From a virus, in IMG/VR virus record IMGVR_UViG_3300045988_130225, positions 35,703 through 99,702 of that record: a stretch of DNA of 64,000 nt; one strand, given 5' to 3'. Shown here piece by piece: positions 24,235 to 59,942 of the stretch. Each line of letters begins with the position of its first letter. Within the stretch, counting starts at the first letter, position 1. The translations under genes and the position numbers were made by a program. A model generated the notes under the pieces. The model made no database searches, had not been told where the DNA came from, and was given only the letters and a program-made list of their open reading frames with translations.

Positions 24235-25705
24235 GAAAACTTATAAAAAGTTATAAACTTTTATGTTTCATTCCTACTTCAACGAGTATGCTTTCATAAT
24301 TATTTCTAATATACTACTCACAAGTTCTTGCACTCTCCATAGGCGTAAATTCCGAACTAACGTATTCGTACATATTTATATCAACCTGAAATGCTATGAT
24401 ACAGATTGATTTAAAACATTTTCTCCATATCTTTTAAGATTTAAAGATGCTTGATAATCTCTGTCAATCATATTACCGCAATCACATTTATAAACACGGT
24501 CTGATAATTTTAAATCTTTTTTAATTTTGCCACAACAACTGCATAATTTAGAACTAGGAAAAAACCTATCAGCAACTATTACAGTAATATTATTCCATTT
24601 ACTTTTATATTTAATTTGCCGTCTAAACTCATAAAATCCTTGCTGTTGTATAGCTTTGGATAAATGTTTATTTTTCATCATACCTTTTACATTCAAATCT
24701 TCAATACAAATAAAACTTGGTTCTCGCTTTATAATTTCAGAAGTTATTTGATGTAAATAATTCTTGCGAATATTTGTTAGTTTATGATTTACTTTTAAAA
24801 GTTTCTTTTCGCTTTTTACAATGTTACTTGTTTTACAATAACTATCTCCTTTCTTGTTTTTTAAATATTCCCTAGAAACAGAACGCTGTAACCTACGTTT
24901 TTTCTTCTCTAACTGTTTTATCTTTTGTGATTTATTTATATTTTGATATTTATAATTATTAGAACAAATAGCTAAATCTTTAATTCCTAAATCAATACCA
25001 ATTCCTTCTTTATTAGGAATATTTACACTATCTGGATATTCTACACCAACTGTAATCCACCAATTTAATCCGTCAAATTTAATTCTAGGATTATAATATT
25101 TACAATCTGTCGGTATACGATTACGTTCAGCAAGTCGTATCCAGTTTAATTTCTGCTTATTTTTCTTTTTAGATTTTGTAAATCCTTCAACTTTTACATG
25201 AGTTTCAGAAAATTGAATTTTTACACTATCTTGGTAAAAGGAGGGTGTAGATTTTTTTCTGTTTTTAAATTTAGGAAAGTTTGTCAAGCCTTTAAAAAAT
25301 TTCTTATAAGCATCACAAGCATCTTTAATAGCTTGTTTTGTGACATTGTTAGAAATATCATTTAACCAGACATATTTCTGTGTATGTTTCATTTTTGTAA
25401 ATTCTTTTCGCAAATCCGTATCAGATAGAAATTTACCACCATTTTTATAATTTTCTTGTTCTCTTGCTAATGCCCAGTTATAAGCAAATCGAGCAGTGTA
25501 AGCATACTGAAGCAATTTTGTCTTTTGTTTATTGTTTGGAATTAACATTACTCGAATCGTTTTTAACACATTGTTCGCCACCTTCATCTATAAGTTCTTT
25601 TACAAATTTCTTTGCTTTGTCTTATAAAACTTATAAAAATCAACATTCAATTATAACTTTTTATAAGTTTATAATCATTGTTATTCACCTCTTTCAACCA
25701 GTGTT
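24235..25705 (-). mobile_element. TnpB-only IS200/IS605-superfamily element (element 1)
   Basis: tnpB flanked by a perfect 20 bp inverted repeat (24237-24256 versus the reverse complement of 25651-25670) and by 13 nt direct repeats ACTCAC(C/T)GTTACT (24222-24234, 25706-25718). Confidence 0.6.
24394..25587 (-). CDS. tnpB: TnpB RNA-guided nuclease
   Basis: 397 aa; RuvC motifs GIDLGIKDLA / ICIEDLNVKGM / DRDYQASLNL and a CxxC..CxC zinc ribbon. Confidence 0.9.
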   Translation of the reverse strand: MKVANNVLKTIRVMLIPNNKQKTKLLQYAYTARFAYNWALAREQENYKNGGKFLSDTDLRKEFTKMKHTQKYVWLNDISNNVTKQAIKDACDAYKKFFKGLTNFPKFKNRKKSTPSFYQDSVKIQFSETHVKVEGFTKSKKKNKQKLNWIRLAERNRIPTDCKYYNPRIKFDGLNWWITVGVEYPDSVNIPNKEGIGIDLGIKDLAICSNNYKYQNINKSQKIKQLEKKKRRLQRSVSREYLKNKKGDSYCKTSNIVKSEKKLLKVNHKLTNIRKNYLHQITSEIIKREPSFICIEDLNVKGMMKNKHLSKAIQQQGFYEFRRQIKYKSKWNNITVIVADRFFPSSKLCSCCGKIKKDLKLSDRVYKCDCGNMIDRDYQASLNLKRYGENVLNQSVS

Positions 25706-29442: not shown

Positions 29443-30555
29443 TTAAACATTTAAAATTCTTAAACCCTCATTCAAAATATTAATAGAAGCATTATCATCT
29501 CTATTCAATTTTGAACCGCAGTTAGAACAAATCCAGTATCTAATCTCAACAGGCTTTTTACCACCATTAACACCACAACAATGACAAATTTGTGAAGAAG
29601 GAAAATATCTATTAATTACAGATAATATTTTTCCATACCAAATAGATTTATAAGTCAACATTCTACGAAATTCAGACCAAGAAACATCATTCACATGTTT
29701 ATTACGAACACTGGAATCTGTTTCCCTCATAGACTGTACATCTAAATCTTCAATACAAATAATATCATATTGTTTAACAATATTAGTAGTCAATTTCTGT
29801 AAAAAGTCTTTACGTTGATTAGATATATGTTTTTGTAAATTTGCGACTTTAATTCTTGCTTTATTCCAATTAGAACCACCGATTGCTTTTCTCGATAATT
29901 CTCTTTGTAACTTAGCAAGTTTCTTTTCTGACTTTTCATAAAATCTAGGATTTTTAATCTTAATACCGTCAGATAAGATTGCAAAATCTACAATCCCTAA
30001 ATCTATTCCAACATTTTTATTTGTTTTTGGATATTGTGGAAATTCTATATCAGTACAGCATAATGAACAATAGTAATGTCCGTTTGGTTCTTGTGATATA
30101 GTAGCGTTAAGTATTCTTCCTTGCGGAATTTGCTTATCACGAACTTTTACAAAACCTAATTTTGGAAGCCTGATATGCTTACTTTCAAATCTTATATTAT
30201 TAGTAGTACAACTTGTAGTATAAGATTGATGTCTATTTTTCTTAGATTTAAAATTAGGAAAACCAGTTTGCTTTTTAAAAAGTTTTTGATATGCATTATC
30301 TAAATTTTTCAAAGTTTTCTGTAAAGCATCTTTATCTGGTTCTTTAAGCCATTCATTTTCTTTCTTTAACTGAGTAAGCATTTTACTTGTGTCGTAATAG
30401 TTTAAAGTTTTCTTATTTTCTTTATACTCAGTTATTCTTTTGTCTAAGAAATAATTATAAACATATCTACAGCAACCAAAAGTTTTCTGTATTAATTCTT
30501 GCTGTTTCTTATTCGGATAAATTCTATACTTAAAAGCCTTTTCCAACAATATCAC
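29443..30555 (-). CDS. tnpB: TnpB RNA-guided nuclease
   Basis: 370 aa; VGIDLGIVDFA / IICIEDLDVQSM / NRDDNASINIL and zinc ribbon CHCCG..CSNCG. Confidence 0.9.
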   Translation of the reverse strand: MILLEKAFKYRIYPNKKQQELIQKTFGCCRYVYNYFLDKRITEYKENKKTLNYYDTSKMLTQLKKENEWLKEPDKDALQKTLKNLDNAYQKLFKKQTGFPNFKSKKNRHQSYTTSCTTNNIRFESKHIRLPKLGFVKVRDKQIPQGRILNATISQEPNGHYYCSLCCTDIEFPQYPKTNKNVGIDLGIVDFAILSDGIKIKNPRFYEKSEKKLAKLQRELSRKAIGGSNWNKARIKVANLQKHISNQRKDFLQKLTTNIVKQYDIICIEDLDVQSMRETDSSVRNKHVNDVSWSEFRRMLTYKSIWYGKILSVINRYFPSSQICHCCGVNGGKKPVEIRYWICSNCGSKLNRDDNASINILNEGLRILNV

Positions 30556-33934: not shown

Positions 33935-36430
33935 TCAACCATTTTCATGTAATTTCTTTAAATTTTCTATTATTAAATCACCGACAACAGCCCAACAAAA
34001 ATATTTATTCTTATTCTGTCCATAACATAAGTCAAGCATAATATTAACAAGTCTATCTTTGTTTGGACAAATTTCTTCTGCTCTTGCTCTAAATTCATGC
34101 TGTATGCTCATAACTCTTGTATTTGCTTCTTCCGTACTTAAATTTTTCTCAATCACAATTTTCTTAAACTGTTTAATACGTTTAATGTATTCTTTTTCAA
34201 GATTTTCAATATCTTCTCTTGTTTTAGGTGAACTTCTTTGAATAGGAGATTTAAGAAATTCATAATTAAAACCCTTGGATTTAAGTTCTACCACTCTGCC
34301 ATCAAATTCACTTTCCACATATCGGCAAATTCGGTTCATAGTAGAACCAGAAATGTTTACTGGCATTTTTATATCGTACCATTCTAAAAACTTTTGCTGT
34401 TCTTCTGTAAGATTTTTCTTTTCTTTTAATTCATTTACTTTACAACCATAAAGCATAACACATTTAAGGTCACAATTTTTTATATAACTATCATAATCTT
34501 TTTTTAAAGAAGAATAATTATAAATAAAATAATAAGGCTTTTTATCTGTTACGATTGCTTTATCTAAAGGTGTGGTACACAGCTTTGAAACGTACCAATA
34601 CTTAGGCATTTCCTTACAAATAACTCCCTTCAGTTTGTCCAGAGTTGACTGTTGATATAACTGTCCACACAAAATACGTTTTGATAATTCTTTATATTCA
34701 TTTGTATTTTCATTAAATAAAGCTAATTTATCTATTTGTGCCGATACTCTATTAGTGATTGTTCCAACTTCTGAGCCTAAGCCCATACGGTTACTTTTTC
34801 TAATATCGTTTCTTTTAACAATTCTTTTCTCTCCTTTACGTTGTACACAATCAATAGCATTTGTATATTTATAAGCACTTAAAAGTACGTTATTATTAGT
34901 AGAATATATAGAATCACTATCAAAATCGCTCCCGTTCAATGCCATACATATAGTGTCCCAATCATTTAGCACCATCATTGTATTAGAATATTTATACCAT
35001 TCTTGGCATTTTTTATCGTTATTTACTTTCATTTTCCTAATATTATTATGTGAAGTCATAGGAGAACGAAAACAAACTACCTCATTCACACCTTTATCTA
35101 TCCAATATTGTGAATATATTTCGTTAGCTTTAAGTAAACCAGTAACCTCTAATCCATATATACTCTGCATTAAAGCATAAGAATCACCCATAACTATCTG
35201 ATAATTCCCTTCAACTTTCAGTTTACCTATCTTAGCTTGATTAATCTTTTTCTTAATCATTTTATTGATTCTGTCAATCACATAAGGGTCATTCATCATT
35301 CTCTCATCTAAATATAAGGCTTGTGCATAATCTTTGGTTTTAGTTTTTTCACCAACACCCAAAAATTCTTTTGTTTTCTGGTAATCACCACCAAACGCCA
35401 TTTTCAGCCAATCAACAGTAGGTTTACATAATTCTACAATCTGTTCATCTGTCAATTCATAACTTTGCAAATACTGATAATTTGTTTCTCTTGTATCTTC
35501 CAACTTTTTAGGTGTTACTTTTGTAGCAGAAAACCTATAACCATTTTCATAATAACATTTGTGGTATTCTTCCCAACTAGAATAATTATCCCATAACTTA
35601 AGACTGGATTCAGTAATAATCATATCCACATCTCGAATATCTCTTTCAGTACCCCAAATATCTTTTACTTTATATCCCTTACCAACTTCCTCAGCAAATT
35701 TTATAATCTCAAAGACATTCAACATACCTTTCATATAAGCATTTCTTAAACAAATACCACTTGGCAAATAATCAAGACCTAATTTATCAGCAACTCTTTG
35801 CATATATTCTGGTGTACAAAGATTCATGCCGTCACTGCCGTTGTTTTCTAACTCTACACCAAATTTTTCCTCAACGATAGGTTCATCTGTTTCACTATCA
35901 TCAATCCTAACCACATCACCCTTAAATTTAGTGATACAATCTCGTACAACCAATACAGAGCGTGGTTCTGGTATCTCAACGGACGCTGAATAGGTCAGAG
36001 CAATATAAGCCTCTAATTTAGCCGGTATAGCCTTGTAATCTTTCTTCCTACCACAATCAGTCCTTTTAATTAACTCTGGTAAAATATCTTCTCTCACAAA
36101 CAATAAAGTATTATTTTTAAGACCACCAGTAGTTCCAACAACCCACAAAAACCTTTTACCATTTAAAATCACACCAGTTTTAGACGTAACTTTGTCATAG
36201 TCACTCATTGAGGAAATCTCCACAGCAAGCATTAAATCCGTCATATCTTGCTTGTATTGTTTGTTACCTATAATTGTAATTAAATCTATCAGTCGAAATG
36301 CTTGTGAATCAAATAAGTCAATCAATTCATCTAAACGAACCGCCAACTCTTTGGATAAAGTAATTTGCCAGTTGTTTATTCGGAAACGTTCAGATGAAAC
36401 TTTGAAAATCTTTCTACGTTTATTTTGCAT
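33935..36430 (-). CDS. YonO / RdRP-like single-subunit (two-barrel) RNA polymerase candidate
   Basis: 831 aa; VVCFRSPMTSHNNIRKMKV followed by NGSDFDSDS mirrors the R.P...gD and GxDxDGD motifs of cellular RdRPs and SPbeta YonO. Confidence 0.6.
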   Translation of the reverse strand: MQNKRRKIFKVSSERFRINNWQITLSKELAVRLDELIDLFDSQAFRLIDLITIIGNKQYKQDMTDLMLAVEISSMSDYDKVTSKTGVILNGKRFLWVVGTTGGLKNNTLLFVREDILPELIKRTDCGRKKDYKAIPAKLEAYIALTYSASVEIPEPRSVLVVRDCITKFKGDVVRIDDSETDEPIVEEKFGVELENNGSDGMNLCTPEYMQRVADKLGLDYLPSGICLRNAYMKGMLNVFEIIKFAEEVGKGYKVKDIWGTERDIRDVDMIITESSLKLWDNYSSWEEYHKCYYENGYRFSATKVTPKKLEDTRETNYQYLQSYELTDEQIVELCKPTVDWLKMAFGGDYQKTKEFLGVGEKTKTKDYAQALYLDERMMNDPYVIDRINKMIKKKINQAKIGKLKVEGNYQIVMGDSYALMQSIYGLEVTGLLKANEIYSQYWIDKGVNEVVCFRSPMTSHNNIRKMKVNNDKKCQEWYKYSNTMMVLNDWDTICMALNGSDFDSDSIYSTNNNVLLSAYKYTNAIDCVQRKGEKRIVKRNDIRKSNRMGLGSEVGTITNRVSAQIDKLALFNENTNEYKELSKRILCGQLYQQSTLDKLKGVICKEMPKYWYVSKLCTTPLDKAIVTDKKPYYFIYNYSSLKKDYDSYIKNCDLKCVMLYGCKVNELKEKKNLTEEQQKFLEWYDIKMPVNISGSTMNRICRYVESEFDGRVVELKSKGFNYEFLKSPIQRSSPKTREDIENLEKEYIKRIKQFKKIVIEKNLSTEEANTRVMSIQHEFRARAEEICPNKDRLVNIMLDLCYGQNKNKYFCWAVVGDLIIENLKKLHENG

Positions 36431-37458: not shown

Positions 37459-37505
37459 TAGTATTTATTTAACTTTTATTAATAATATTTTAATGTATAA
37501 TATAC

Positions 37506-37536
<31 letters not shown>

Positions 37537-37567
37537 GTCTATTATAAAGTAAAGAATTAGCAATCTT

Positions 37568-37800
37568 TGATGCCGTAATTAACAACACACGCTATGGCTA
37601 TAATTTGAAAAAAGGCTACCCTCAAGGGTAGACTTTTGAAAATTTGTGCCATGTGTTGTTGATTACGGTATCAAACAAGCGGGGAAGAATGTAGAAATAA
37701 CATGGTGCGAAACCCTTGGGTTGAGCATGCTACCATGTTATTTATATATTCTGGGGTGCAACGCCCAGAGACGGGGTGTGGGTGTCCTCAACCCCACCAT
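37568..37800. other. GC-rich nested-helix element in the divergent control region (strand unknown)
   Basis: 21-22 nt arms 37568-37589 / 37652-37673 (19/21 complementary) enclose a terminator-like hairpin; then a 12 bp helix AAATAACATGGT/ACCATGTTATTT, CTGGG/CCCAG and GGGGT/ACCCC stems. Confidence 0.4.
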
Positions 37801-42828: not shown

Positions 42829-42875
42829 ATTGAATAAAAAAGAATAAAAAGTTTTAAAATTTTTTAAAAAAGTTC

Positions 42876-42904
42876 TTGACGGATTAAGGATTATATAGTA
42901 TAGT
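42876..42904 (+). promoter_or_regulatory. sigma70-type promoter with A/T UP-like element
   Basis: TTGACG, 17 nt spacer, TATAGT; upstream AAAATTTTTTAAAAAAGTTC nearly identical to the promoter at 43253. Confidence 0.55.
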
Positions 42905-43200: not shown

Positions 43201-43252
43201 ACCATTATGATCAAGGACTTAATAAAAATAATTAAAAATTTTTAAAAAGTCC

Positions 43253-43281
43253 TTGACTTATCTAATAAAATATGTTATAGT
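43253..43281 (+). promoter_or_regulatory. strong sigma70-type promoter driving an ORF-free segment
   Basis: TTGACT, 17 nt spacer, TGtTATAGT; same UP-like box as 42876. Confidence 0.6.
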
Positions 43282-43287
43282 ATATAC

Positions 43288-44017
43288 ATAGCAAACAAGA
43301 GAACAAGTAAATGAGTAAACGTAATTAATTATTTAGTCGAAAGTTTACAGAGTTTGACAGTTGCTAAAATAACTAAATTTATAGGTTTGGCATGAGGAAG
43401 AGTTATTGTGTAACAAGGGCCGTCGAATGTAATTAAAATCTACGGAGAACAAACTCCGGTAAAAGCCCTGCGTATGAAAGTGGTGTATATCTTTTTTGTT
43501 AGGTTCAGCTTTTGCCTAAATCGTGTGTAGACGAAGAAAAGATATATAAAAGCAAAAATAGGTTTTTTCTCTGAATCATGTTAAATCGGCGGTTGGTTGG
43601 TTATTAAGTGTAAGCGCAAACACGTAATAACGCAACATGATGTGTCACTACTCACAACCGCTTTTGGTATGCTATCCACACATACCAAAGCCTCCTAATT
43701 CGCAATACAAAAGATTAATTTTCTCCTTTTTGACTAGTAACTTTTCTGGTAGATGGACGTGAATAGTCAAAGGTGGCAACTTGTTTTATCGAGGAATAAG
43801 TTGCCACATACATAGTAATTGAAAACTGAATATTTGAGATTACTAAAAAATCCGTTAATAATGAAAATGCTAAGTATTCATAGATACGATAAATATTTAG
43901 CTTAAAATGTTATTAAAAACCTACTCTGTAGAGATATAAACCATGGCAGTGAGAACGTATCTAGTCTGTGATTACAGAATATTATCCTTTGGTAGCGGTT
44001 GAGGGGATATTAATTAA
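43288..44017 (+). ncRNA. candidate large structured ncRNA (~730 nt) abutting tRNA-Gln
   Basis: No ORF; many 7-11 bp helices (ATATATCTTTT/AAAAGATATAT, GCGGTTG/CAACCGC, GTTATTA/TAATAAC, TTTGGTATG/CATACCAAA, GTGGCAACTT/AAGTTGCCAC); GC above the local background. Confidence 0.5.
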
Positions 44018-44089
44018 AGGGCATTAGCCAAGCGGAAAGGCAAAACACTTTGACTGTTTCATGCGTAGGTCCGAATCCTACATGCCCTG
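44018..44089 (+). tRNA. tRNA-Gln (UUG)
   Basis: Manual fold: 7 bp acceptor AGGGCAT/ATGCCCT, D-arm GCCAAGCGGAAAGGC, anticodon stem AAACA/TGTTT with loop CTTTGAC, T-arm GTAGG-TCCGAAT-CCTAC. Confidence 0.85.
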
Positions 44090-44119: not shown

Positions 44120-44868
44120 ATGAATACTAATATTAAATATTATGAACGTAAAGTTCCAATAGTTGATACTTATTCTGTTAAAGAATTAGAAGAAATTGTG
44201 AAAAATTCATATTCTTTTAAAGAAGTAATTTTAAAATTGGGGTATAAAACGCAGAATGGAAGTAATATAAAAACAGTAAGAAACAGATTAGAAAACTTAA
44301 ACATTGATTATAGTCATTTTGCTTCTACTATGCAAATAAAAAGAACCTATGAAAATGTATTTTGTAAAAATAGTACAACTACACAGCATGTTTTAAGACG
44401 GTGGTATAAGAAAATAAGTAATGATAATATTTGTACTATTTGCAGACAGGATAAAATCTGGAATAATAAAGAATTGACTATGATTTTAGACCACATTGAT
44501 GGCAACAATCATAACAATGTAACTTCAAATCTACGGTGGATTTGTCCTAATTGCAACAGTCAGTTGCCTACATTTGCAGGCAGAAATTTAAGATTAGAAA
44601 TGTAAAGTTAAAACATACAAGAGAAAAGAAAATTTGTCCTATTTGCAACAAAAATATCCTTTCTAACAGTGATAATAAAATGTGTATTGATTGCTACAAA
44701 AATTATCAATCCAGAAATATTCCTGCTAAAGAAGAGTTAGAAAAATTAATTTATAATACGCCTTTTGTAAAAATTGGTAAAAAATACGGGGTATCAGATA
44801 ACGCTGTAAGAAATTGGTGTAAGAAATACGGCTTACCTTATAAATATAATGATTTACACAAAAGATAA
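44120..44868 (+). pseudogene. HNH homing-endonuclease-like gene split into two frames (44120..44605 and 44551..44868)
   Basis: N-part carries DHIDGNNHNNVTSNLRWICPNCN (HNH); C-part carries a zinc ribbon plus the GKKYGVSDNAVRNWCKKYGL HTH typical of the same protein family. Confidence 0.6.
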
Positions 44869-44973: not shown

Positions 44974-45047
44974 GGAACAATATTTCAACTGGTTAGAAAG
45001 TTCGGCTCATAACCGAAAAGTTATAGGTTCGAGTCCTATTTGTTCCA
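44974..45047 (+). tRNA. tRNA-Met (CAU; could be an Ile2-type)
   Basis: Manual fold: acceptor GGAACAA/TTGTTCC, D-arm TTTC..GAAA, anticodon stem TTCGG/CCGAA with loop CTCATAA, T-arm ATAGG-TTCGAGT-CCTAT. Confidence 0.85.
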
Positions 45048-45149
45048 TTAGAAGAATAATCAATATTGCACACCATCACCTTATAATTATAATGACGTTC
45101 CCCCTAAAATAACGTTTATTACTGCAATATTAATTGTTCTTCACAATAC

Positions 45150-45210
45150 AAAACAGTAATACAGTATAACAACTCCCACCACCAATGTTTATGCTGTATT
45201 ACTGTTTTTT
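45150..45210 (+). terminator. long hairpin with T-run (tRNA operon terminator or IS left-end structure)
   Basis: 15 bp stem AAAACAGTAATACAG/CTGTATTACTGTTTT, then TT. Confidence 0.45.
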
Positions 45211-45211
45211 A

Positions 45212-46467
45212 TAGAACAGTAAGCCAAAAACCCCCATTAGCTTTAGCTGATGGGAAGAATAGTGGAGAACAATTAACTGAGAGTGAGGTGATTATAGATG
45301 TTGGTAGCATACAAATACAGATTGTATCCGAATAAAGAACAACAAGAATATTTTGCTAAATGTTTTGGGTGTGTACGATTTATCTATAATCGTATGCTTT
45401 CAGATAAGATTGACTATTATAAAGAAACAAAGAAAAAGCTGAATAATACACCTGCTCAGTACAAGAAAAAGTTTGAGTGGCTAAAAGAAGTAGATTCACT
45501 TGCATTAGCAAATGCTCAAATGAATTTGCAGACAGCCTATAACAATTTTTTCAAACGTCCAGAAGTGGGTTTTCCAAAATTCAAAAGCAAGAAGAATAAT
45601 CACTTCTCTTATACTACAAATAATCAGGGAGGAAACATTTATGTGACAGACCGATACATAAAACTCCCTAAGATTGGACTTGTTAGAGTTCGGAAACATA
45701 GAGATTTTGAAGGATTAATTAAGTCTGTTACTATTTCTAAAAGTCCGTCTGGTAAATACTTTGTTTCAGTATTAGTAGACCAAAAAGATAAAGAAAAATT
45801 AATTCCAAACAATAACCAAATTGGAATTGATTTAGGTATTAAAGAATTTTGTATTACTTCTGATGAAGAGATGATTCAAAATCCAAAGTTTCTTAGAAAG
45901 TCTGAAAAGAAATTAAGAAAATTACAAAAGGATTTATCTCGTTGTCAAAAAGAAAGTAAAAATAGAGAAAAATGCAGAATTAAAGTCGCAAGACAACATG
46001 AAAAGATTGCAAATCAACGTAAAGATTTTCTACATAAGTTATCTAGGCGATTTATTGATGAAAACCAAATCATTGCATTAGAAACTTTGAAAATTAAAAA
46101 TATGATGAGTAATCATAAATTAGCAAAATCAATAGCAGATGTATCATGGTCTGAATTTGTAAGACAATTAGAGTATAAGGCTCAGTGGTATGGTAGAGAA
46201 ATCGTAAGGATTGATACTTGGTATCCATCAAGTCAGATATGCTCTAATTGTGGTCACAAAGACAGAAGAAAGCCATTATCAGTAAGAGAATGGATCTGTC
46301 CTAATTGTGGTACACATCATGAAAGGGATATAAATGCAGCTATAAATATTCTTAAAGAAGGTTTGAGAATTAAAACGGCAGGAACTGTCGAGATAGTCTA
46401 AGTAAACTTGTGCGGTTACGCATATTGATTAGAAAATCCAATGAGTTTTAACTCATGGGTAGTTCAG
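45212..46467 (+). mobile_element. TnpB-only IS605-type element (element 3); left boundary uncertain
   Basis: Similar subterminal hairpins at both ends (CCCATTAGC-TTTA-GCTGATGGG at 45232-45253; CCAATGAG-TTTTAA-CTCATGGG before 46459); right end GGGTAGTTCAG parallels element 2. Confidence 0.55.
45298..46401 (+). CDS. tnpB: TnpB RNA-guided nuclease
   Basis: 367 aa; [11 protein letters not shown] / [12 protein letters not shown] / [11 protein letters not shown] and zinc ribbon CSNCG..CPNCG. Confidence 0.9.
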
Positions 46468-48665: not shown

Positions 48666-48992
48666 ATGAAAGTAAAGAAAGTAAAAGGAATATCTGAAAT
48701 GGGATTTTTTGAAATGAGTTTTGATTTTAAATTTGGAGATAAAGTAAAACCTGTAAACCTCTGTCAATATACTCTTGCTATCGACAGTGAAGTATATTTG
48801 CAAAGTATAAGCAACATGAAAATAATCAATGCTAAAAGTCTTATCGCACTTAGCCAGTTTCCTTATTTCCCCACTGAAACTGTAAGACTTATTATTAAAG
48901 ATAACAAGTCAAGTGAAGCAAACAAGGCTTTAGAATATTTTCTAAGTCAGAACACATTTATTGTCAGAAAGCGAGTTGTTCAACATGATTGA
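48666..48992 (+). CDS. HPr-like domain protein lacking the His15 motif
   Basis: ORF 48657..48992; ATG at 48666 after AAGAGGTGA; ..NMKIINAKSLIALSQF.. matches the HPr Ser46 region (N.KS.mg.m). Confidence 0.45.
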   Translation: MKVKKVKGISEMGFFEMSFDFKFGDKVKPVNLCQYTLAIDSEVYLQSISNMKIINAKSLIALSQFPYFPTETVRLIIKDNKSSEANKALEYFLSQNTFIVRKRVVQHD

Positions 48993-49416
48993 TAAATTAA
49001 GAGAAGCAAAAAAAGGTAAACTTACCAAAGAAGAAAACGCAATTAAACAGGTTTCAGCATGTATAAAGGCATGGGAAAATAATGAACCTGCGACACTTAG
49101 CACTGAAACAATGAAAACAATCCTTAAAACTTTAAAAGAGATAAAAGATTTTCGTGACGTTGGCAACGTAAAAACTATAAAAGAATTAAAAAAACTCAGC
49201 CTTAAACGTCAACCTAAAAATCTTAATAAAAAATATTGCGACTACAAAGTTGACGATGAAGAAATCCATTCTTTCTATGGCATCTGCCCCAACTGCGAGC
49301 AACCATTAAATTTCTACTGGCATCAGAAATATTGCGGCAACTGTGGACAAGCCCTTATCTGGCGAAACTTAAAGTCAGTAATAAGCAAGAAAGACCTTGA
49401 CAAAATCATAAAGTGA
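48961..49416 (+). CDS. hypothetical protein with C-terminal zinc ribbon (start uncertain)
   Basis: 151 aa; CPNCE..CGNCG. Confidence 0.45.
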   Translation: MSESELFNMIDKLREAKKGKLTKEENAIKQVSACIKAWENNEPATLSTETMKTILKTLKEIKDFRDVGNVKTIKELKKLSLKRQPKNLNKKYCDYKVDDEEIHSFYGICPNCEQPLNFYWHQKYCGNCGQALIWRNLKSVISKKDLDKIIK

Positions 49417-49432
49417 CACGTTCACATTTTTA

Positions 49433-49475
49433 AACCCCTTAGTAACACAAAGTACAAGGGGTTCTTTTTTATTTT
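49433..49475 (+). terminator. intrinsic terminator
   Basis: AACCCCTT...AAGGGGTT stem followed by CTTTTTTATTTT. Confidence 0.7.
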
Positions 49476-50399
49476 CAACCAAGTTATCACATTCAGAACA
49501 AAATTCCCCTATATCTACTTTCTACGGACTGTTACCACCCTAAATCAGAATAAATCCCCCTAACTCAGAGCACGAGATTTCGCCCTATATTGCAAAACAC
49601 TACATGAAGCCCAAGGGAGTAATTATTTGCAATGTCCTATAAATTGGACACCTAAAACACTAATGAAAATCATTTAAGACTTGAAGCATTGCAATTCGCC
49701 CACTCGAAAACGCCTACGCAAAAACCATTACTTTTCGACTATAGGGGGTCAAGGCACTTTTCGCCAATAGTTCTTTTTAGAACCATTTTTCCGTTATTCA
49801 TAAATTTTAATAACGAACAGTGAAATGACAAAACACCTGTCTTTACAACTGACAAGACAACTGACAAGACATTTCTTAATTTTCCACTATGGTTATGATA
49901 TACCACTCTCCCCTAAATTTAACTACCTGTGGTCACTCTTATATACCGTTACAACTCATTTAAACGCCCCTAGAAACGATTTTAATAGATAAGACGATTA
50001 AGTTATCATACGCAGACTAAAACGCCCACATTTGCCTTGTACTGTTTCATATAAAAAGTGACACCTTATCATGCTCCTAAAACCTCTACAGAAATAATAG
50101 TCAAAATTTAAACCAGTATACCGGTATACGGCGAATGACCCCCTTGTTCCCCAGTATACAATTACCCCCCTCTATCAGATAATATATTATCTATTGTAAA
50201 GAGTAGATGACTAAGAGATAGAACTACAAGAATTATAAGAATAGATAAGAGATAAGAGGATTGAGAACTGGATAATATGTTGGTTATTACATACTCGTAA
50301 ATGTTGCAAAATCCCTATTCTGTGTTATCACCTACACCTATAAAACCACTAGGCATAAAGAGCAAAATGATACACACATTTTCGTCATATATATCTTAA

Positions 50400-50820
50400 A
50401 TACTCTTAGACGATTTACTGTGTGCTATTGTTGTGAGAAATGATATGAAAAGTATAGGTGGTTAAGGTGGTGTGAAAATGGTCTGGGATAGGTATGGGGA
50501 ATTTGGTTATCGTGCGTGTGCGTTATATATAATTATATATAGTGGGAGTTAATAAGTAGGAAACGGTGAAGTGATGAGAGATGAAAAACTAAGGATTGAT
50601 ATGAACATAAGGATTTAGGAATATAGAGGGCAGAAGGATATATAAGGATATATGATATAAGGTGAGAGTGGGCGTGAGTGGGTGCGGAGATAATGATGAT
50701 AGTTGGGATAGAGCAATAGCAATGGGGGATAGGGGGTAACAGGAGCAATAGATAGAGAGATAATTGAAATACTATGAATATTGGGTGAATATTGAGTTGT
50801 GGGAGTGTGCGGTGTATCAG
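50400..50820. repeat. C-depleted (G/A/T) block
   Basis: Manual count, e.g. 50461-50520 has 25 G versus 3 C; recurring GGGATA, GGTATGGGG, GTGCGG, TATAAGG motifs. Confidence 0.8.
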
Positions 50821-50997
50821 CTATTCCGAGTATGCGAAAATCGTATATACGAATTGTCTGAAAATACCCCGGTTATACGTGACTAACAGAATGAGTGTTC
50901 GACTAGCCCAGAGGAGGGGGCGATATACTCTGCCTGCATAGGTTCGGAACGTCAAAAAACATGGCTATAATAAATCATTATAGACACGTTTTGCATG

Positions 50998-51015
50998 TTA
51001 TCAATATATTGATAA
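50998..51015. repeat. perfect 18 bp palindrome in the core between the two skewed blocks
   Basis: TTATCAATATATTGATAA equals its reverse complement. Confidence 0.95.
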
Positions 51016-51149
51016 TACTATACGTTCAAAACTAATGGTTTTTATTGATACTTGAACACTTTTAACGTGATTGATATATTGGAAGTATTATATTATGTTA
51101 AAAAAATGACGTAATAAGAAGGTACTATATATGTGATACCGCATACCAT

Positions 51150-51650
51150 TAGCTAAGTTATCTTCCTTTATGTTTCTTCTTTCCCCTCTTCTCTTCATAC
51201 GCTCTCAATAGTCCGCATGAAACATTGTATATACTTATTATATCTATATTATTCCATCATCCTCTTTCTCCATCTTCCCATATCCTACTATACCATCTTC
51301 CATTCTTTCACCTATCAACCCACTTTCCATCCGTTCATATATCCCACTTATACCAGATCCATTTCAATTCCATTTCCATTTCCACCTGTCATCATTCCCC
51401 ACACTTCCACATCTTACAATTAATCCCATGTCTTATCATATCTCATATCACATCTTCTGTTATCTCATACCACCGCACAACATACCCATACCATCTTACA
51501 TAGTAACAATAACCACATACATAGTATTCAATACTACTTGTAATCTTACTCATATCCCATATCATGTTTTACAATACTATCTCATATCCCTATTAATCCA
51601 CTATGTTAATATGTTACCCATAAACCCATTATCCATATAGGTTAATATAT
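51150..51650. repeat. G-depleted (C/A/T) block
   Basis: Manual count, e.g. 51241-51300 has 0 G versus about 21 C; recurring CCATCTT, CCCATA, TATCCC motifs. Confidence 0.8.
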
Positions 51651-51722
51651 AAATCATAAACCCTATAACATACTATGTTATTGAATTATAACATAATTAT
51701 ATGAGTTGTTGTTATTGATATC

Positions 51723-51808
51723 ATTTTAGGCAATACTTTTATCGCAACGGCTCAATTTTAGTCAATACTTAAAATTTGTACGAAAACTATTGGCATTTTA
51801 GCAATAAT
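51723..51808 (+). repeat. three iteron-like direct repeats ATTTTAG(N)CAATA
   Basis: 51723-51737 ATTTTAGGCAATACT, 51755-51769 ATTTTAGTCAATACT, 51795-51808 ATTTTAGCAATAAT. Confidence 0.7.
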
Positions 51809-52643
51809 GATACATACTAAAACGTTTAATATATATATTATATATGGCACGAAAATGTATGTGTTATTGTTTGAAAAATTGCTACAATTTTCATTATGTT
51901 AGCACAACTCCAATTTTTTGGTTTACATAAGGTGTGAATATTCAGACGCAATTTGAATTTTAGAATAATTTAGCTGTACTTATTAATAAGTGGCGTTTTT
52001 AATAAGTGTATCTAATAATAAATGGCAAGCGATCCAATGCCGGATTTATGTAAATGCCGTTTAAAGCCCTTAGAAGCCGTTTTAAAGCGTTTTAGGGCTT
52101 TCAAAGCATATTTTATCATTAAATGTTTTTCCAATCGAAACTATGTTATGTGGTATTGAAAACTACGTTATTATCTGACAATTTGGCACTCATTAGTGGT
52201 AAGTGCTAATAAGTAAACATATGTGAATTATTGCCATATATGAATAGTAAATAAATGTTTATTAATGGGCTTCTAACATAAAAGCAAAAACACCTATATA
52301 AGCAATGGGGCTTGTATGTATGCTTACTTATATATATGTATATATGCATGGTGTTTTATATGGGACTTGCATATGCTTTTATATAGTAGTCTGCTTTTTT
52401 TGTAAATCCCTTATATATAGGAAGTAATACAATCGAATAGATGTTTTTATGAAAAATGTATAAAAAAATATATGTTTTTTGGTAGTTTTTACCATTGAGT
52501 ATATATATACTTTTTGCTATACTTGCATTATCAAATGAATCAAATCATTTCCATATCGGAAATATTAAGAATATACGTTCTGTATATTCCAAAAAAAATA
52601 AAATTAAACATTAAATCATACATATAAAAGGAGAAGAAAAACA

Positions 52644-52937
52644 ATGAAAAAAATATTAAAAGCAAGTACAAAGAGTGGCGCGCGTTGGATCGTATCCGCA
52701 AAAAAAGAAGAAGGCTATAGACTTTCCGATATTTATGAAAGCTATAGCATAGGCAAAGAAAACGCCTATAACGATTGCTTCAACAAATATGTTTCTGCTG
52801 AAACTTCAAAAAATTTCCGTATTTTTTCTCATAATACTTTTGGTTTTTCTGTAGCTTGGGAGGAAACCATAGAAAATGAAGAATATTTACATATTGAAAC
52901 ACCACAAAACACATATATTGTGGCTTTAAATCAATAA
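52644..52937 (+). CDS. hypothetical protein
   Basis: 97 aa; AAAAGGAGAAG RBS. Confidence 0.6.
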   Translation: MKKILKASTKSGARWIVSAKKEEGYRLSDIYESYSIGKENAYNDCFNKYVSAETSKNFRIFSHNTFGFSVAWEETIENEEYLHIETPQNTYIVALNQ

Positions 52938-54375: not shown

Positions 54376-54960
54376 ATGGCAAGTTGTTATAATCTGGACG
54401 GAATCAAGACAAGTTTAAAAATTGAGATTGAGGAAAGAGAAGCAATACTCAAAGCATGGGAAAATGTAACATTCCCAACAAAGAAAAATGGTGAACCATT
54501 TGCAGTAATGAGCAAAAATATCAATGGTGCGACTTATAAAAAAGCAGATTATGGTTTAAGTGCTAACAATGTTGAATTGAAAGTTGTTGCAAACAATAAT
54601 CATAAATGGACAACTGATAGTATTGATTGCTATACGTTAGTTAGATATTTAAAAGATAAAAGCAAAATTGCAAAAACTGAAAATTATATGCCTAAAGAAC
54701 TTTGTTTGGAACAAGTTTATAAGTTTGATTTAGAGGACATTAAAGAAGCTGTAAATAATAGAATTGAATACCTTAAAGGATATGTGGAATCTTTGAAAAA
54801 GCAATTAGAAATTGCAGATAAAGCATATGCAGGTTTCAGAAAAGTATATGAAGATGCAATGGCAGTTCTGGACAATGTGACGGAAACAAAGAAAGATGAA
54901 TACAGCTTTTTAAAATCTAGTATTTTAGATACAATTAAAAATCGTTATCCATATTGCTAA
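54376..54960 (+). CDS. hypothetical protein
   Basis: 194 aa; AAAGGAGAA RBS. Confidence 0.6.
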   Translation: MASCYNLDGIKTSLKIEIEEREAILKAWENVTFPTKKNGEPFAVMSKNINGATYKKADYGLSANNVELKVVANNNHKWTTDSIDCYTLVRYLKDKSKIAKTENYMPKELCLEQVYKFDLEDIKEAVNNRIEYLKGYVESLKKQLEIADKAYAGFRKVYEDAMAVLDNVTETKKDEYSFLKSSILDTIKNRYPYC

Positions 54961-55032
54961 AAATCACAGCGCAGAGGAAAAAGAAAAAATTCCTCTGCCA
55001 TACATAAAAAAATCAGAAGGGAAAAACAGAAA

Positions 55033-57862: not shown

Positions 57863-58111
57863 ATGGCAGTATTAAAAAATGATGAACTGGAAGTAATGAA
57901 CAGAATCAATAAATTACTTTCACCGAATACGCAAGGATTTTTTGAATTGTATTTTAATCTCACAGAAGAACAGAAAGCAGATATAGTGAAGTTTACCAGG
58001 CTTATAGGAAAGTTGGAAAATGATAGGGATATGCAAAGGATAAGAACAAAATTAGCAAATAGAGAAAAGCGAAAAATCAATAAAGATTATGGGAGAAGAA
58101 AGCAGGCGTAA
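57863..58111 (+). CDS. hypothetical basic protein
   Basis: 82 aa; AGAGGA RBS. Confidence 0.55.
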   Translation: MAVLKNDELEVMNRINKLLSPNTQGFFELYFNLTEEQKADIVKFTRLIGKLENDRDMQRIRTKLANREKRKINKDYGRRKQA

Positions 58112-58129
58112 CGCTTGCTTTTCTTTTTT
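58100..58129 (+). terminator. intrinsic terminator overlapping the stop codon
   Basis: AAGCAGGCG-TAA-CGCTTGCTT followed by TTCTTTTTT. Confidence 0.6.
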
Positions 58130-58200
58130 GGTTTAATACCAGCTAAAATAACAGCGTTTAGATTTTAGATGATAAATGTATCATGTAACGTGCTAGAACT

Positions 58201-58230
58201 GCTTGTAGTGGCTTGTAGCGCGTTGTAGCT
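58201..58230 (+). repeat. three tandem 10-mers (one helical turn each)
   Basis: GCTTGTAGTG GCTTGTAGCG CGTTGTAGCT. Confidence 0.85.
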
Positions 58231-58341
58231 GTATCCTGATAATTGATTTATGTATTTTATTCCGGATGTTTGTATGTTATCCAATTATTGATAATATTAT
58301 AAAAAGCATAATAAAAATCATTATATTTTTTAAAATAAATA

Positions 58342-58370
58342 TTGACAAAGCATATAAAAAGTATTATAAT
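58342..58370 (+). promoter_or_regulatory. perfect-consensus sigma70 promoter with no obvious ORF downstream
   Basis: TTGACA, 17 nt spacer, TATAAT. Confidence 0.55.
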
Positions 58371-58509
58371 TAAGATAGTTAAAAAAGAATAGTTGTGGTG
58401 GAGAGTCCTAGCCCGGATATAGGAAAAACATTGAAGATACAATTTTTTAATTGTCTGATAATTTTAATGTTTCCTTATGCTATTCTAAACATTTATTTAT
58501 GATATTCCA

Positions 58510-58538
58510 TTGACTTTTATATATAAATTTGTTATACT
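58510..58538 (+). promoter_or_regulatory. sigma70-type promoter
   Basis: TTGACT, 17 nt spacer, TATACT. Confidence 0.5.
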
Positions 58539-58571
58539 TTATATAATTATAAAAAAGAGGGAAGTGAAAAG

Positions 58572-58718
58572 ATGTATTTTACAAAGGACTACAGACAACT
58601 TGATACTGTAGCATTGTATTTATTGTATAATAAGGATAGAAAACAGTATAAGACAGTATACAGCTTTAAACAGTGGTTAAACAAGTCTTTATTGACCGGA
58701 AGTATTAAAAGGCTGTAA
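58572..58718 (+). CDS. small hypothetical protein (48 aa)
   Basis: AGAGGGAAGTGAAAAG before the ATG; has its own promoter and terminator; below the ORF-track cutoff. Confidence 0.45.
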   Translation: MYFTKDYRQLDTVALYLLYNKDRKQYKTVYSFKQWLNKSLLTGSIKRL

Positions 58719-58765
58719 CAAGGTTTACAATCGTATATAAAGCCGATATAAAGCGAATAAAGCAT

Positions 58766-58813
58766 AGGCATAAACATAGGAATAAAATTTCTTGTGTTTA
58801 TGCCTGTTTTTTA
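58766..58813 (+). terminator. intrinsic terminator
   Basis: AGGCATAAACA...TGTTTATGCCT followed by GTTTTTTATTT. Confidence 0.7.
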
Positions 58814-59381
58814 TTTCAGAAAAATCAAATACAGAAAAGATCGTAGTTGTCCAGAATAAACCTATTAGAATAGTATGAATTATTACAAGCTAAAACTAGA
58901 CGTTTTAACACGTCAATAGTAATTTATTCAAATAAGTATGTAAAACGGCTAGAAACGGCTTGTAGCATGTTATAACATGGTTTAAATAGTTTTTAATCGG
59001 TCTGGAAGGTTGAAAACGGGCAGATTATCCGGTTATAGGTTATCTGGTTTACTGTATGGGAGTTTTTTAGTAAATGAAAAATACTGTTCAATTTTAAATG
59101 ACTTAAGGGAAATTTGAACTGAATTGTCAAATTGTTTGAAACAATTCACAATCGAACAAGTGTTCGGTGATTATCTTTCAGAATTTTCTGAAATTTCCCA
59201 GAGGTAAGAAATTCCCCCAGAATATGCGAGAATAATTTTTCCCCACGAAGTTAGTGGGGATTTTCGTTTTGGTAATAGCGAGATTTAAAAATTCCCCACG
59301 GAGTTTTTTAATTTATTTTTTTATTTTCTTTTATTTTCTTTATTGTTTAAACATTTTCTTTTATAATTTTTATCTTATCTA

Positions 59382-59410
59382 TTGACAAAATCTAATGTTT
59401 ATGTTATTCT
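59382..59410 (+). promoter_or_regulatory. sigma70-type promoter
   Basis: TTGACA, 17 nt spacer, TATTCT. Confidence 0.45.
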
Positions 59411-59456
59411 TTTGTATAGAAGTTATTAGTGTATAACGAAAGGAGAAAAATTTTTT

Positions 59457-59942
59457 ATGAAAATGGAAATAGTTTTGACTGAGAAAGAGATTGAAAATTT
59501 ACCATATATAAGTAAGGGTGAGATTATTAATAATTGTGATTTTTGCATTGAAATCAATAAATTTTTAAGACATATAATACCTATTGAAATTAATAAAGAA
59601 AAATATTGTAGGTGTAATGGTTGTAATGAAAATATTAATGTTGCTTTTTATGTAGAAAAAGAACTTAGCAAGAAAGAATATTTCCGTAGATTTATTGAAG
59701 AACCTTTTTATAAAAATATTTGCGATTCTTATGTAAAGATTTTAAACTGTGGTGTTATATTTATTGATGAAACAAGTTCAGACAAAGAAATAAAGTATTT
59801 TATTAAACAAGCTATCAATCCAGAAGTAATGTTTGAAGGAAATTTCAAAGATTTTAAATTTAACGAGCAACTTGATAAAACTTTAGACCTTACTGAAACT
59901 GTTGAAAAAAGATGGTTCGTATGTGTTGAAAGCATATTATAG
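59457..59942 (+). CDS. Cys-rich hypothetical protein
   Basis: 161 aa; GAAAGGAGAA RBS; CDFC...CRCNGC. Confidence 0.55.
   Translation: MKMEIVLTEKEIENLPYISKGEIINNCDFCIEINKFLRHIIPIEINKEKYCRCNGCNENINVAFYVEKELSKKEYFRRFIEEPFYKNICDSYVKILNCGVIFIDETSSDKEIKYFIKQAINPEVMFEGNFKDFKFNEQLDKTLDLTETVEKRWFVCVESIL

Follow-up and report, generated by a model that had tools for sequence, protein, structure and literature searches.

The window, that is, the entire 64 000-nucleotide stretch of viral DNA analyzed here, is a segment of a phage genome that encompasses a structural module and a gene for a YonO-like RNA polymerase, with the structural genes on the minus strand up to ~37.4 kb and the early genes on the plus strand after 37.9 kb. 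The structural module adjoins the polymerase gene in Enterocloster phage PMBT24, and the same arrangement is found in the window; the overall GC content is 30.9% in the window and 32.1% in PMBT24. The polymerase gene is the following:

33935-36427 (-), YonO-type single-subunit RNA polymerase relative, 830 aa, 63% identity to the YonO-type polymerase of Enterocloster phages PMBT24 and CB457P1

This ORF has no Pfam match. Its counterpart in PMBT24 is annotated as ‘RNA-dependent RNA polymerase', and the YonO type is that of SPbeta-like phages. The phage is one of Firmicutes (Lachnospiraceae-type), and the carriers of the RNA described below are a narrow clade of uncultivated human-gut siphophages related to PMBT24. 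The RNA locus (43286-44017) is located in the early region, flanked by small hypothetical genes and DNA-methylase genes, and comprises the following elements:

43222-43252 (+), A/T-rich UP-like box upstream of the -35 element
43253-43281 (+), sigma-70-type promoter with an extended -10 element (-35 TTGACT at 43253-58, 17-nt spacer, TGtTATAGT at 43273-81)
43286-44017 (+), whole non-coding RNA gene, ~732 nt, with no ORF, 20 variants, strand-specific folding and no Rfam match
44018-44089 (+), tRNA-Gln(UUG), directly abutting the RNA, identified by ARAGORN and Rfam cmscan
44120-44868 (+), decayed HNH homing-endonuclease gene, an optional insert between the two tRNAs, with weak HNH_3 and HNH_5 matches
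44974-45047 (+), tRNA-Met(CAU), the second tRNA of an RNA-only operon

The promoter scores 10 of the 12 consensus matches and carries the TG extension. The upstream box, AAAAGTYCTTGAC, has mismatch-free copies only here and at 42868, where it is shared with the promoter at 42876. With 29 promoter-like sites found vs 25 expected, the region shows no overall enrichment, so that the promoter call is based on the quality of the site and on its conservation. This conservation extends to all relatives; in L007 and L125, the same RNA start is joined instead to a promoter of the 42876 type, which has the same architecture. Two interchangeable promoter versions precede one RNA start, ACATAGCAA. The most distant relative, L153, has TTGACA-17-TGcTATAGT. 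The promoter, including the box common with that at 42876, had been pointed out in the sequence-only reading, an earlier reading of this DNA made without database searches, and it stands. The 5′ end of the RNA is placed by the promoter together with the invariant ACAUAGCAA, and the 3′ end is the base before tRNA-Gln. No intrinsic terminator is predicted between the promoter and tRNA-Gln.

The same reading had described the ~730 nt downstream of the promoter as free of ORFs, GC-enriched relative to its surroundings and packed with helices of 7-11 bp. The first of these properties holds for the 732 nt at 43286-44017: the longest ORF in 43201-44017 encodes 41 aa and is broken in relatives, acquiring an in-frame TAG in L005 and L011. 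An alternative genetic code was considered for the locus and rejected, given that reassignment of TGA or TAG creates no ORF in 43201-44017. The GC enrichment is genuine but small, with 33.6% in the RNA region compared with 27.6% and 29.6% in the flanks, and does not extend to the most conserved 3′ part (29.8%). No paralog of the RNA was found elsewhere in the window.

The folding energy of the full-length segment departs from that of shuffled sequences on the plus strand (z -4.26) much more than on the minus strand (z -0.93). Locally, the 200-nt windows inside the RNA region reach z of ~-3.2 at best, against a genome background with a mean of -0.8 and a standard deviation of 1.6, so that the local folding energies of this region are unremarkable for the genome, and much more extreme values occur elsewhere in the window.

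The RNA ends at 44017 and, as claimed earlier, runs straight into tRNA-Gln(UUG) at 44018. In all 17 full-length variants checked, tRNA-Gln(UUG) starts 0-5 nt past the RNA end and is followed by tRNA-Met; in L154, tRNA-Gln comes 3 nt after the RNA, and in L153, it is tRNA-Ser that abuts the RNA, with tRNA-Gln coming next. Every complete variant of the RNA ends 0-5 nt ahead of a tRNA, which is tRNA-Gln or, in one lineage, tRNA-Ser, and tRNA-Gln itself occurs in clearly different alleles among the variants. Because the junction is invariant while the tRNAs interchange, co-transcription of the RNA with the tRNA and its release by RNase P appear likely.

The homing-endonuclease-like gene and the tRNA-Met that had been noticed downstream are both present, the former in a decayed state. 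It reads as two overlapping ORFs (44120-44605 and 44551-44868) because 49 nt inside the gene are missing by comparison with L125, where it is intact and encodes 265 aa; the resulting frameshift shows in the alignment, which runs in frame 1 and then in frame 3. The gene is absent in L005, L011 and L012. In the variants checked for both features, the HNH gene is accompanied by a 72-nt tRNA-Gln allele, and variants lacking it have a 77-78-nt allele, a pairing that suggests co-conversion of the flank.

Altogether, 20 distinct variants of the RNA, with lengths of ~495-740 nt, were found, all in relatives of PMBT24; this number is a lower bound on the breadth of the family, all homologs coming from metagenomes and from one phage clade. 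IMG/VR and the metagenome collection yielded only close relatives, 92-97% identical: five exact-pattern scans of IMG/VR returned the same five contigs along with chance matches, one such scan of metagenomes returned five near-identical contigs, and one scan of genome_contigs returned only chance 18-mer matches. Further contigs from ENA and Logan were reached by searching a protein collection with the 82-aa upstream and 125-aa downstream ORFs and then collecting the contigs that encode the matching proteins. The informative variants are the following:

L117, ~85% identical, with changes throughout
L125, 5′ 330 nt strongly diverged, alternative promoter
L149/L151 (2335-2834), deletion of ~nt 35-268 (~235 nt of the 5′ domain), with the promoter, the first ~34 nt and the rest retained
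L154, with an almost unchanged 5′ 520 nt and a strongly diverged 3′ 200 nt
L153, a 106-kb contig with an ORF-free segment of ~495 nt (2005-2499) preceded by the same type of promoter, in which only the central segment aligns

The deletion in L149/L151 implies either that the 5′ domain is dispensable or that these are defective copies; given this natural loss of ~235 nt, much of the length of the RNA may be dispensable. L153 and the 3′ domain of L154 are misaligned by MAFFT and were read by eye or through a covariance model.

Outside this clade, the RNA was not detected. BLAST searches of GenBank phages with the RNAs of the window and of L153 gave only tRNA or promoter-like matches, or none, and one of these matches, H2, was dismissed as mere A/T-rich promoter similarity. 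The RNA is absent from 79 other phage loci that share the adjacent Thy1-like gene, and the ORF-poor gaps at such loci, which were considered as candidates, contain small genes instead. In PMBT24, which is the closest relative in culture, tRNAs are lacking, and nhmmer, BLAST and a covariance model all failed to detect a homolog of the RNA. No description of the RNA turned up in literature searches. The ORF-poor stretches beside tRNAs in L041, L049 and L152 proved unrelated to the RNA of the window. That in L152 (IMG/VR contig 3300021400_003582, 7612-9126, minus strand) consists of ~1.5 kb of ORF-poor, partly purine-rich sequence with a GGGG-repeat, lies upstream of a tRNA-Gln/tRNA-Ser pair and has no Rfam match.

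The variants provide for comparative analysis of the structure, in which the following peripheral domains are distinguished:

43286-43581 (+), variable 5′ domain, strongly diverged in L125, L117 and L153
43289-43366 (+), 5′ hairpin region
43384-43395 / 43578-43589 (+), closing helix of the branched 5′ domain
43704-44017 (+), 3′ domain, with predicted hairpins at 43730-43773, 43774-43808, 43814-43846 and 43856-43917

Eight close variants gave a weak signal, with 4 compensatory pairs only, all in one lineage. With 18 variants, the RNAalifold consensus structure consists of 193 pairs, including many G-U pairs, and 11 of these are changed on both sides, compared with 0.9 +/- 0.9 when columns are shuffled (0 of 500 shuffles) and 0-2 with slid partners. 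Overall, including the core described below, four divergent sequences, namely L117, L125, L154 and L153, account for most of the covariation. Variable columns are enriched in unpaired positions of the plus-strand folds (Fisher p = 1e-5 for the alifold consensus and 3e-5 to 0.29 for single-sequence folds), with no such enrichment in the reverse-complement fold (p = 0.70). In the 5′ domain, compensatory pairs are located in the A5 helices 17-20/69-72, 101-112/302-313, 160-164/171-175 and 277-281/288-292, and also in 152-159/282-290.

The 3′ domain contains conserved blocks that follow the hairpins (UGGCAGU, UCUAGUCUG, UUACAGAA and CGGUUGAGG). The segment ~43790-44005 is identical in 16 of the 18 variants and diverged in L117 and L154; L153 has a shorter, unrelated 3′ part in its place. 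There are 0 differences per 100 nt in this segment vs 1-10 elsewhere, and other blocks in this mosaic neighborhood also show 0-2% divergence. The near-identity of the last ~215 nt across 16 variants is no more than moderate evidence of constraint, and could in part result from recent recombination. The hairpin at 43856-43917 shows compensatory changes in L117 and is replaced in L154 by a different hairpin, the outer stem of which, as read by eye, is compensated. The other hairpins of this domain are mostly invariant in 16 of the 18 variants, which precludes any covariation signal. The predicted long-range closure of the 3′ domain, pairing ~43694-43721 with 43989-44008, shows uncompensated changes in L154, L117 and L006, and these closing helices are not supported; when the alignment was searched for long-range helices by covariation, the candidates did not rise above noise. 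The description of the segment as packed with 7-11 bp helices holds only in part: helices of the core and of parts of the 5′ domain show covariation, and the predicted long-range closing helices are contradicted by the uncompensated changes.

The strongest comparative evidence comes from a short central segment:

43582-43703 (+), conserved 122-nt core, retained in the most distant member, L153, as detected with covariance model R1
43588-43595 / 43655-43662 (+), core helix a
43596-43611 / 43620-43636 (+), core helix b, with the loop UAAGCGCAA
43646-43654 (+), unpaired conserved core motif CACUACUCA
43663-43671 / 43681-43689 (+), core hairpin c
43692-43696 (+), CCUCC motif of the core, just past the third helix

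Model R1, which was built from nine variants with L153 left out and includes the three-helix structure, detects L153 with 79.9 bits and an E-value of 1.6e-16, and nothing besides L153 in 1.33 Mb of other phage loci, PMBT24 included. In L153, 8 of the 32 core pairs are changed on both sides and none is broken, compared with 0.6 +/- 0.8 two-sided changes in shuffles and 0-1 in slid controls; all eight compensatory events come from L153 alone, on the model-fitted alignment. The minimum-energy fold of the L153 sequence itself reproduces the same core, and around the core, L153 has diverged beyond alignment. The comparison of homologs, both across the 18 variants and in the core, supports genuine RNA helices. 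A possible tertiary contact between CUCAC (43651-55) and GUGAG (43949-53) shows a single compensatory event, in L154, and is only a lead. Close to the start of the core, a GGTT unit (43591-43602, GGC-GGTT-GGTT-GGTT-A) is present in two to four copies among the variants (L129, L130, L150 and L149), presumably through slippage, and the junction that separates helices a and b becomes longer or shorter with the copy number.

The RNA matches no family represented in Rfam. All 4227 families of Rfam 15 were scanned with cmscan, at the gathering score and then at E<=10 with lax filters, over 2.4 kb and over the 751-nt region. There is no family match for 43270-44020 at E<=10, apart from two chance-level matches of the 751-nt region to unrelated eukaryotic and viral families, and the same search of relatives, PMBT24 and L153 gave no match for the RNA. 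Membership in the classes that had been named for checking, namely GOLLD, ROOL, raiA, group I and II introns and tmRNA, is therefore not supported, for the window as well as for L153. The models of RNase P RNA, OLE, HEARO and omega RNAs, riboswitches and T-box elements likewise give no match. ARAGORN finds no tmRNA and only the two flanking tRNAs; a degenerate tRNA array is discounted as well, with no tRNA-model match inside 43270-44017 at E<=10 and none by ARAGORN. The omega RNA (reRNA) of a TnpB/IS605 element, which overlaps the 3′ end of its tnpB gene or comes directly after it, inside the transposon end, is further discounted by position, the nearest tnpB (45298-46401) being 1.3 kb downstream, beyond the two tRNAs, and absent or located elsewhere in relatives that keep the RNA.

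The RNA, then, is non-coding and conserved, is encoded on the plus strand, contains helices that covary, has a tRNA directly next to it in every case and is without a match in Rfam. Its transcription, processing by RNase P, stability, action in trans and target are predictions from sequence. On this evidence, we lean, without great assurance, to the view that the product of the locus is a large, structured non-coding RNA which belongs to a new, clade-restricted family, is co-transcribed with the tRNAs, is released by RNase P and acts in trans. Host sigma-A RNA polymerase would start at ~43286 from the extended -10 promoter, which looks like an early promoter of the host type, and the RNA would be transcribed together with tRNA-Gln and probably onward through tRNA-Met. 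Cleavage by RNase P at the 5′ end of the tRNA would then free an RNA with a defined 3′ end. The functional center would be the 122-nt core, with its three-helix junction, loop, unpaired motif, hairpin and CCUCC, and the 5′ and 3′ domains would be lineage-specific peripheral elaborations. During infection, the released RNA would most likely function in trans, by binding other molecules or serving as a scaffold, in a parallel to the tRNA-island RNAs GOLLD and ROOL, with the translation machinery as a possible target. Such an RNA probably does a job nobody has described.

Precedents for this mode of 3′ end formation exist: transcripts of the tRNA cluster of phage T4 carry small stable RNAs, and the eukaryotic MALAT1/mascRNA has a tRNA-linked 3′ end generated by RNase P. 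In these cases, too, a non-coding RNA is located immediately 5′ of a tRNA or a tRNA-like structure, and the cut by RNase P at the tRNA 5′ end would make the 3′ end of the upstream RNA. The T4 species differ in being much smaller and unrelated in sequence, and the processing proposed here is deduced from the 0-5 nt junction alone.

The main rival to a trans-acting RNA is a structured leader that acts in cis within the phage tRNA operon, by analogy with the leaders of rRNA operons, and that would aid or regulate transcription, folding or RNase P processing and then be degraded, with no function in trans. Such a leader would fit with the constant proximity of a tRNA, whatever its allele or identity, with the single promoter for the RNA and the tRNA and no terminator between them, and with PMBT24, which lacks both the tRNAs and the RNA, as if the two come and go together. 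However, a size of 500-730 nt, the covarying three-helix core and the conserved unpaired motifs go far beyond the needs of known bacterial tRNA leaders, and the swaps of the tRNA partner (two Gln alleles and Ser), with the core unchanged, argue against specific pairing between leader and tRNA. This explanation appears unlikely, even if it has to be taken more seriously than those that follow. If the RNA is only the leader of a tRNA operon, it is still an unusually elaborate one.

That the segment is a non-functional spacer or the remnant of a decayed gene, which looks conserved through the close kinship of the phages, appears improbable. Most variants are more than 90% identical, the mosaic neighborhood includes other blocks of low divergence, and one variant has a large internal deletion, all of which would be compatible with lack of function. 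Against this stands the core of L153, where 122 nt are retained with eight compensatory pairs and no broken ones while the surroundings have diverged beyond alignment; in addition, substitutions avoid paired positions, and there is neither a preserved frame nor a protein-like remnant.

The case for a structured RNA raises the question of its relationship with GOLLD and ROOL. As the sequence-only reading had pointed out, these RNAs typically occur next to tRNA genes in phages and prophages of Firmicutes, and the locus in the window shares this setting. GOLLD is a large non-coding RNA of phages and prophages that is encoded beside or among tRNA genes, in the same orientation (PMC12286853), and consists of a conserved 3′ part and a variable 5′ part (PMC12286853, PMC5737381); a GOLLD profile is included in Rfam (PMC12286853). 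ROOL (Rumen-Originating, Ornate, Large) is an Rfam family of ~580 nt that occurs in Firmicutes phages and prophages, in many cases close to tRNA islands, with which it is possibly co-transcribed (PMC5737381). GOLLD assembles into a homo-oligomeric nanocage (14-mer), and oligomerization is also seen for ROOL.

The RNA of the window resembles GOLLD in being phage-encoded, adjacent to a tRNA and co-oriented with it, several hundred nucleotides long, and composed of one conserved and one variable part. It resembles ROOL in its size, its occurrence in phages of Firmicutes and its tRNA island setting. The differences are, nevertheless, substantial. The Rfam model of GOLLD is unmatched at E<=10 and so is that of ROOL, in the window and in L153. 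The universally conserved part is central here (43582-43703) whereas that of GOLLD is the 3′ half, and the pattern of a conserved 3′ and a variable 5′ part is observed here only within the main clade and is lost with the inclusion of L154 and L153. The members of the present family are shorter (~495-740 nt) and confined to one phage clade, whereas GOLLD occurs in several phyla. In contrast to ROOL, the structure with comparative support here is limited to one junction, that is, the three-helix core, and one branched 5′ domain, with a few peripheral hairpins and one weak lead to a pseudoknot, over a length of 495-740 nt. Because both the sequence and the conserved architecture differ from those of GOLLD and ROOL, the RNA is assigned to neither and is regarded as a new family of a similar general type; this is the favored reading, and it agrees with the earlier suggestion that the class could be a new one.

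A highly divergent GOLLD or ROOL missed by the Rfam models would share the context (phage, tRNA island, co-orientation), the similar size class and, within the main clade, the GOLLD-like combination of a conserved 3′ and a variable 5′ part (PMC12286853, PMC5737381), but this is very unlikely given that no match appears even with permissive filters in either the window or L153, and that the conserved part shifts from the 3′ end to the center once L154 and L153 are included. Equally remote is a DNA-level element conserved for protein binding, such as a replication origin, packaging site, recombination hotspot or homing-endonuclease target, which would fit the ~215 bp of near-identity across most variants and the location in the early region next to a mobile HNH gene, but not the lack of iterons and tandem repeats in the RNA region, the compensatory changes and G-U pairs that are meaningful only for a plus-strand RNA, the asymmetry of folding between the strands, the persistence of the same sequence in HNH-less variants or the conserved promoter directed into the segment.

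To our knowledge, bacteria and phages seldom encode large structured RNAs that lack both a protein partner and a known function, and the small number of such RNAs on record, namely GOLLD, ROOL and OLE, have extraordinary architectures. If the RNA described here is a further unrelated family, the tRNA-fused niche in phages repeatedly generates large RNAs, which sharpens the question of how the phage benefits. A more far-reaching version of the trans-acting RNA, speculative and rather doubtful at this stage, is that it represents a third independent class of tRNA-island phage RNAs, with a 122-nt core that would be catalytic or would bind a ligand or a protein, and that, once excised by RNase P, would act on host translation, for example, via the anti-Shine-Dalgarno-like CCUCC together with CACUACUCA. 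The family offers several handles, namely a small, defined core, natural deletion and domain-swap variants, and cultivable relatives, the phages of Enterocloster bolteae.

The early region of the window contains three more ORF-poor stretches of 1-1.8 kb (49417-51216, 51640-52644 and 58111-59457), with ORFs of at most 71 aa, and in relatives, ORF-poor gaps also directly follow the homolog of the gene at 48961-49416. These three stretches have no Rfam match and no similarity to the RNA of 43286-44017; they could contain many tiny genes or other non-coding RNAs. Similar stretches of 0.7-1.2 kb in the GenBank record of PMBT24 (L116; 87131-88100, 93553-94273 and 98189-99441), in which only tiny opposite-strand ORFs of 30-50 aa are annotated, look like unrecognized non-coding regions, also with no Rfam match or similarity to the RNA of the window.

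At the gathering score, the only Rfam match in the window besides the two tRNAs is a full-length RAGATH-18 RNA at 24271-24343 on the minus strand, between two ORFs of the structural module (70.6 bits vs a gathering score of 44.9); PMBT24 has zero Rfam matches. Two genes for TnpB (IS605 OrfB/Cas12f-like) are present, at 45298-46401 on the plus strand and at 29443-30555 on the minus strand, and the former is present, absent or relocated among relatives. The 200 nt directly 5′ of this gene (45101-45300, plus strand) are among the strongest folding segments in a scan of 36-56 kb (z -9.1) and are possibly a transposon end. Far stronger local folding than at the RNA locus is also observed at 37501-37800, the switch between the divergently transcribed modules, on both strands (z -9.9 and -7.8), and at 54801-55000 on the plus strand (z -8.1).
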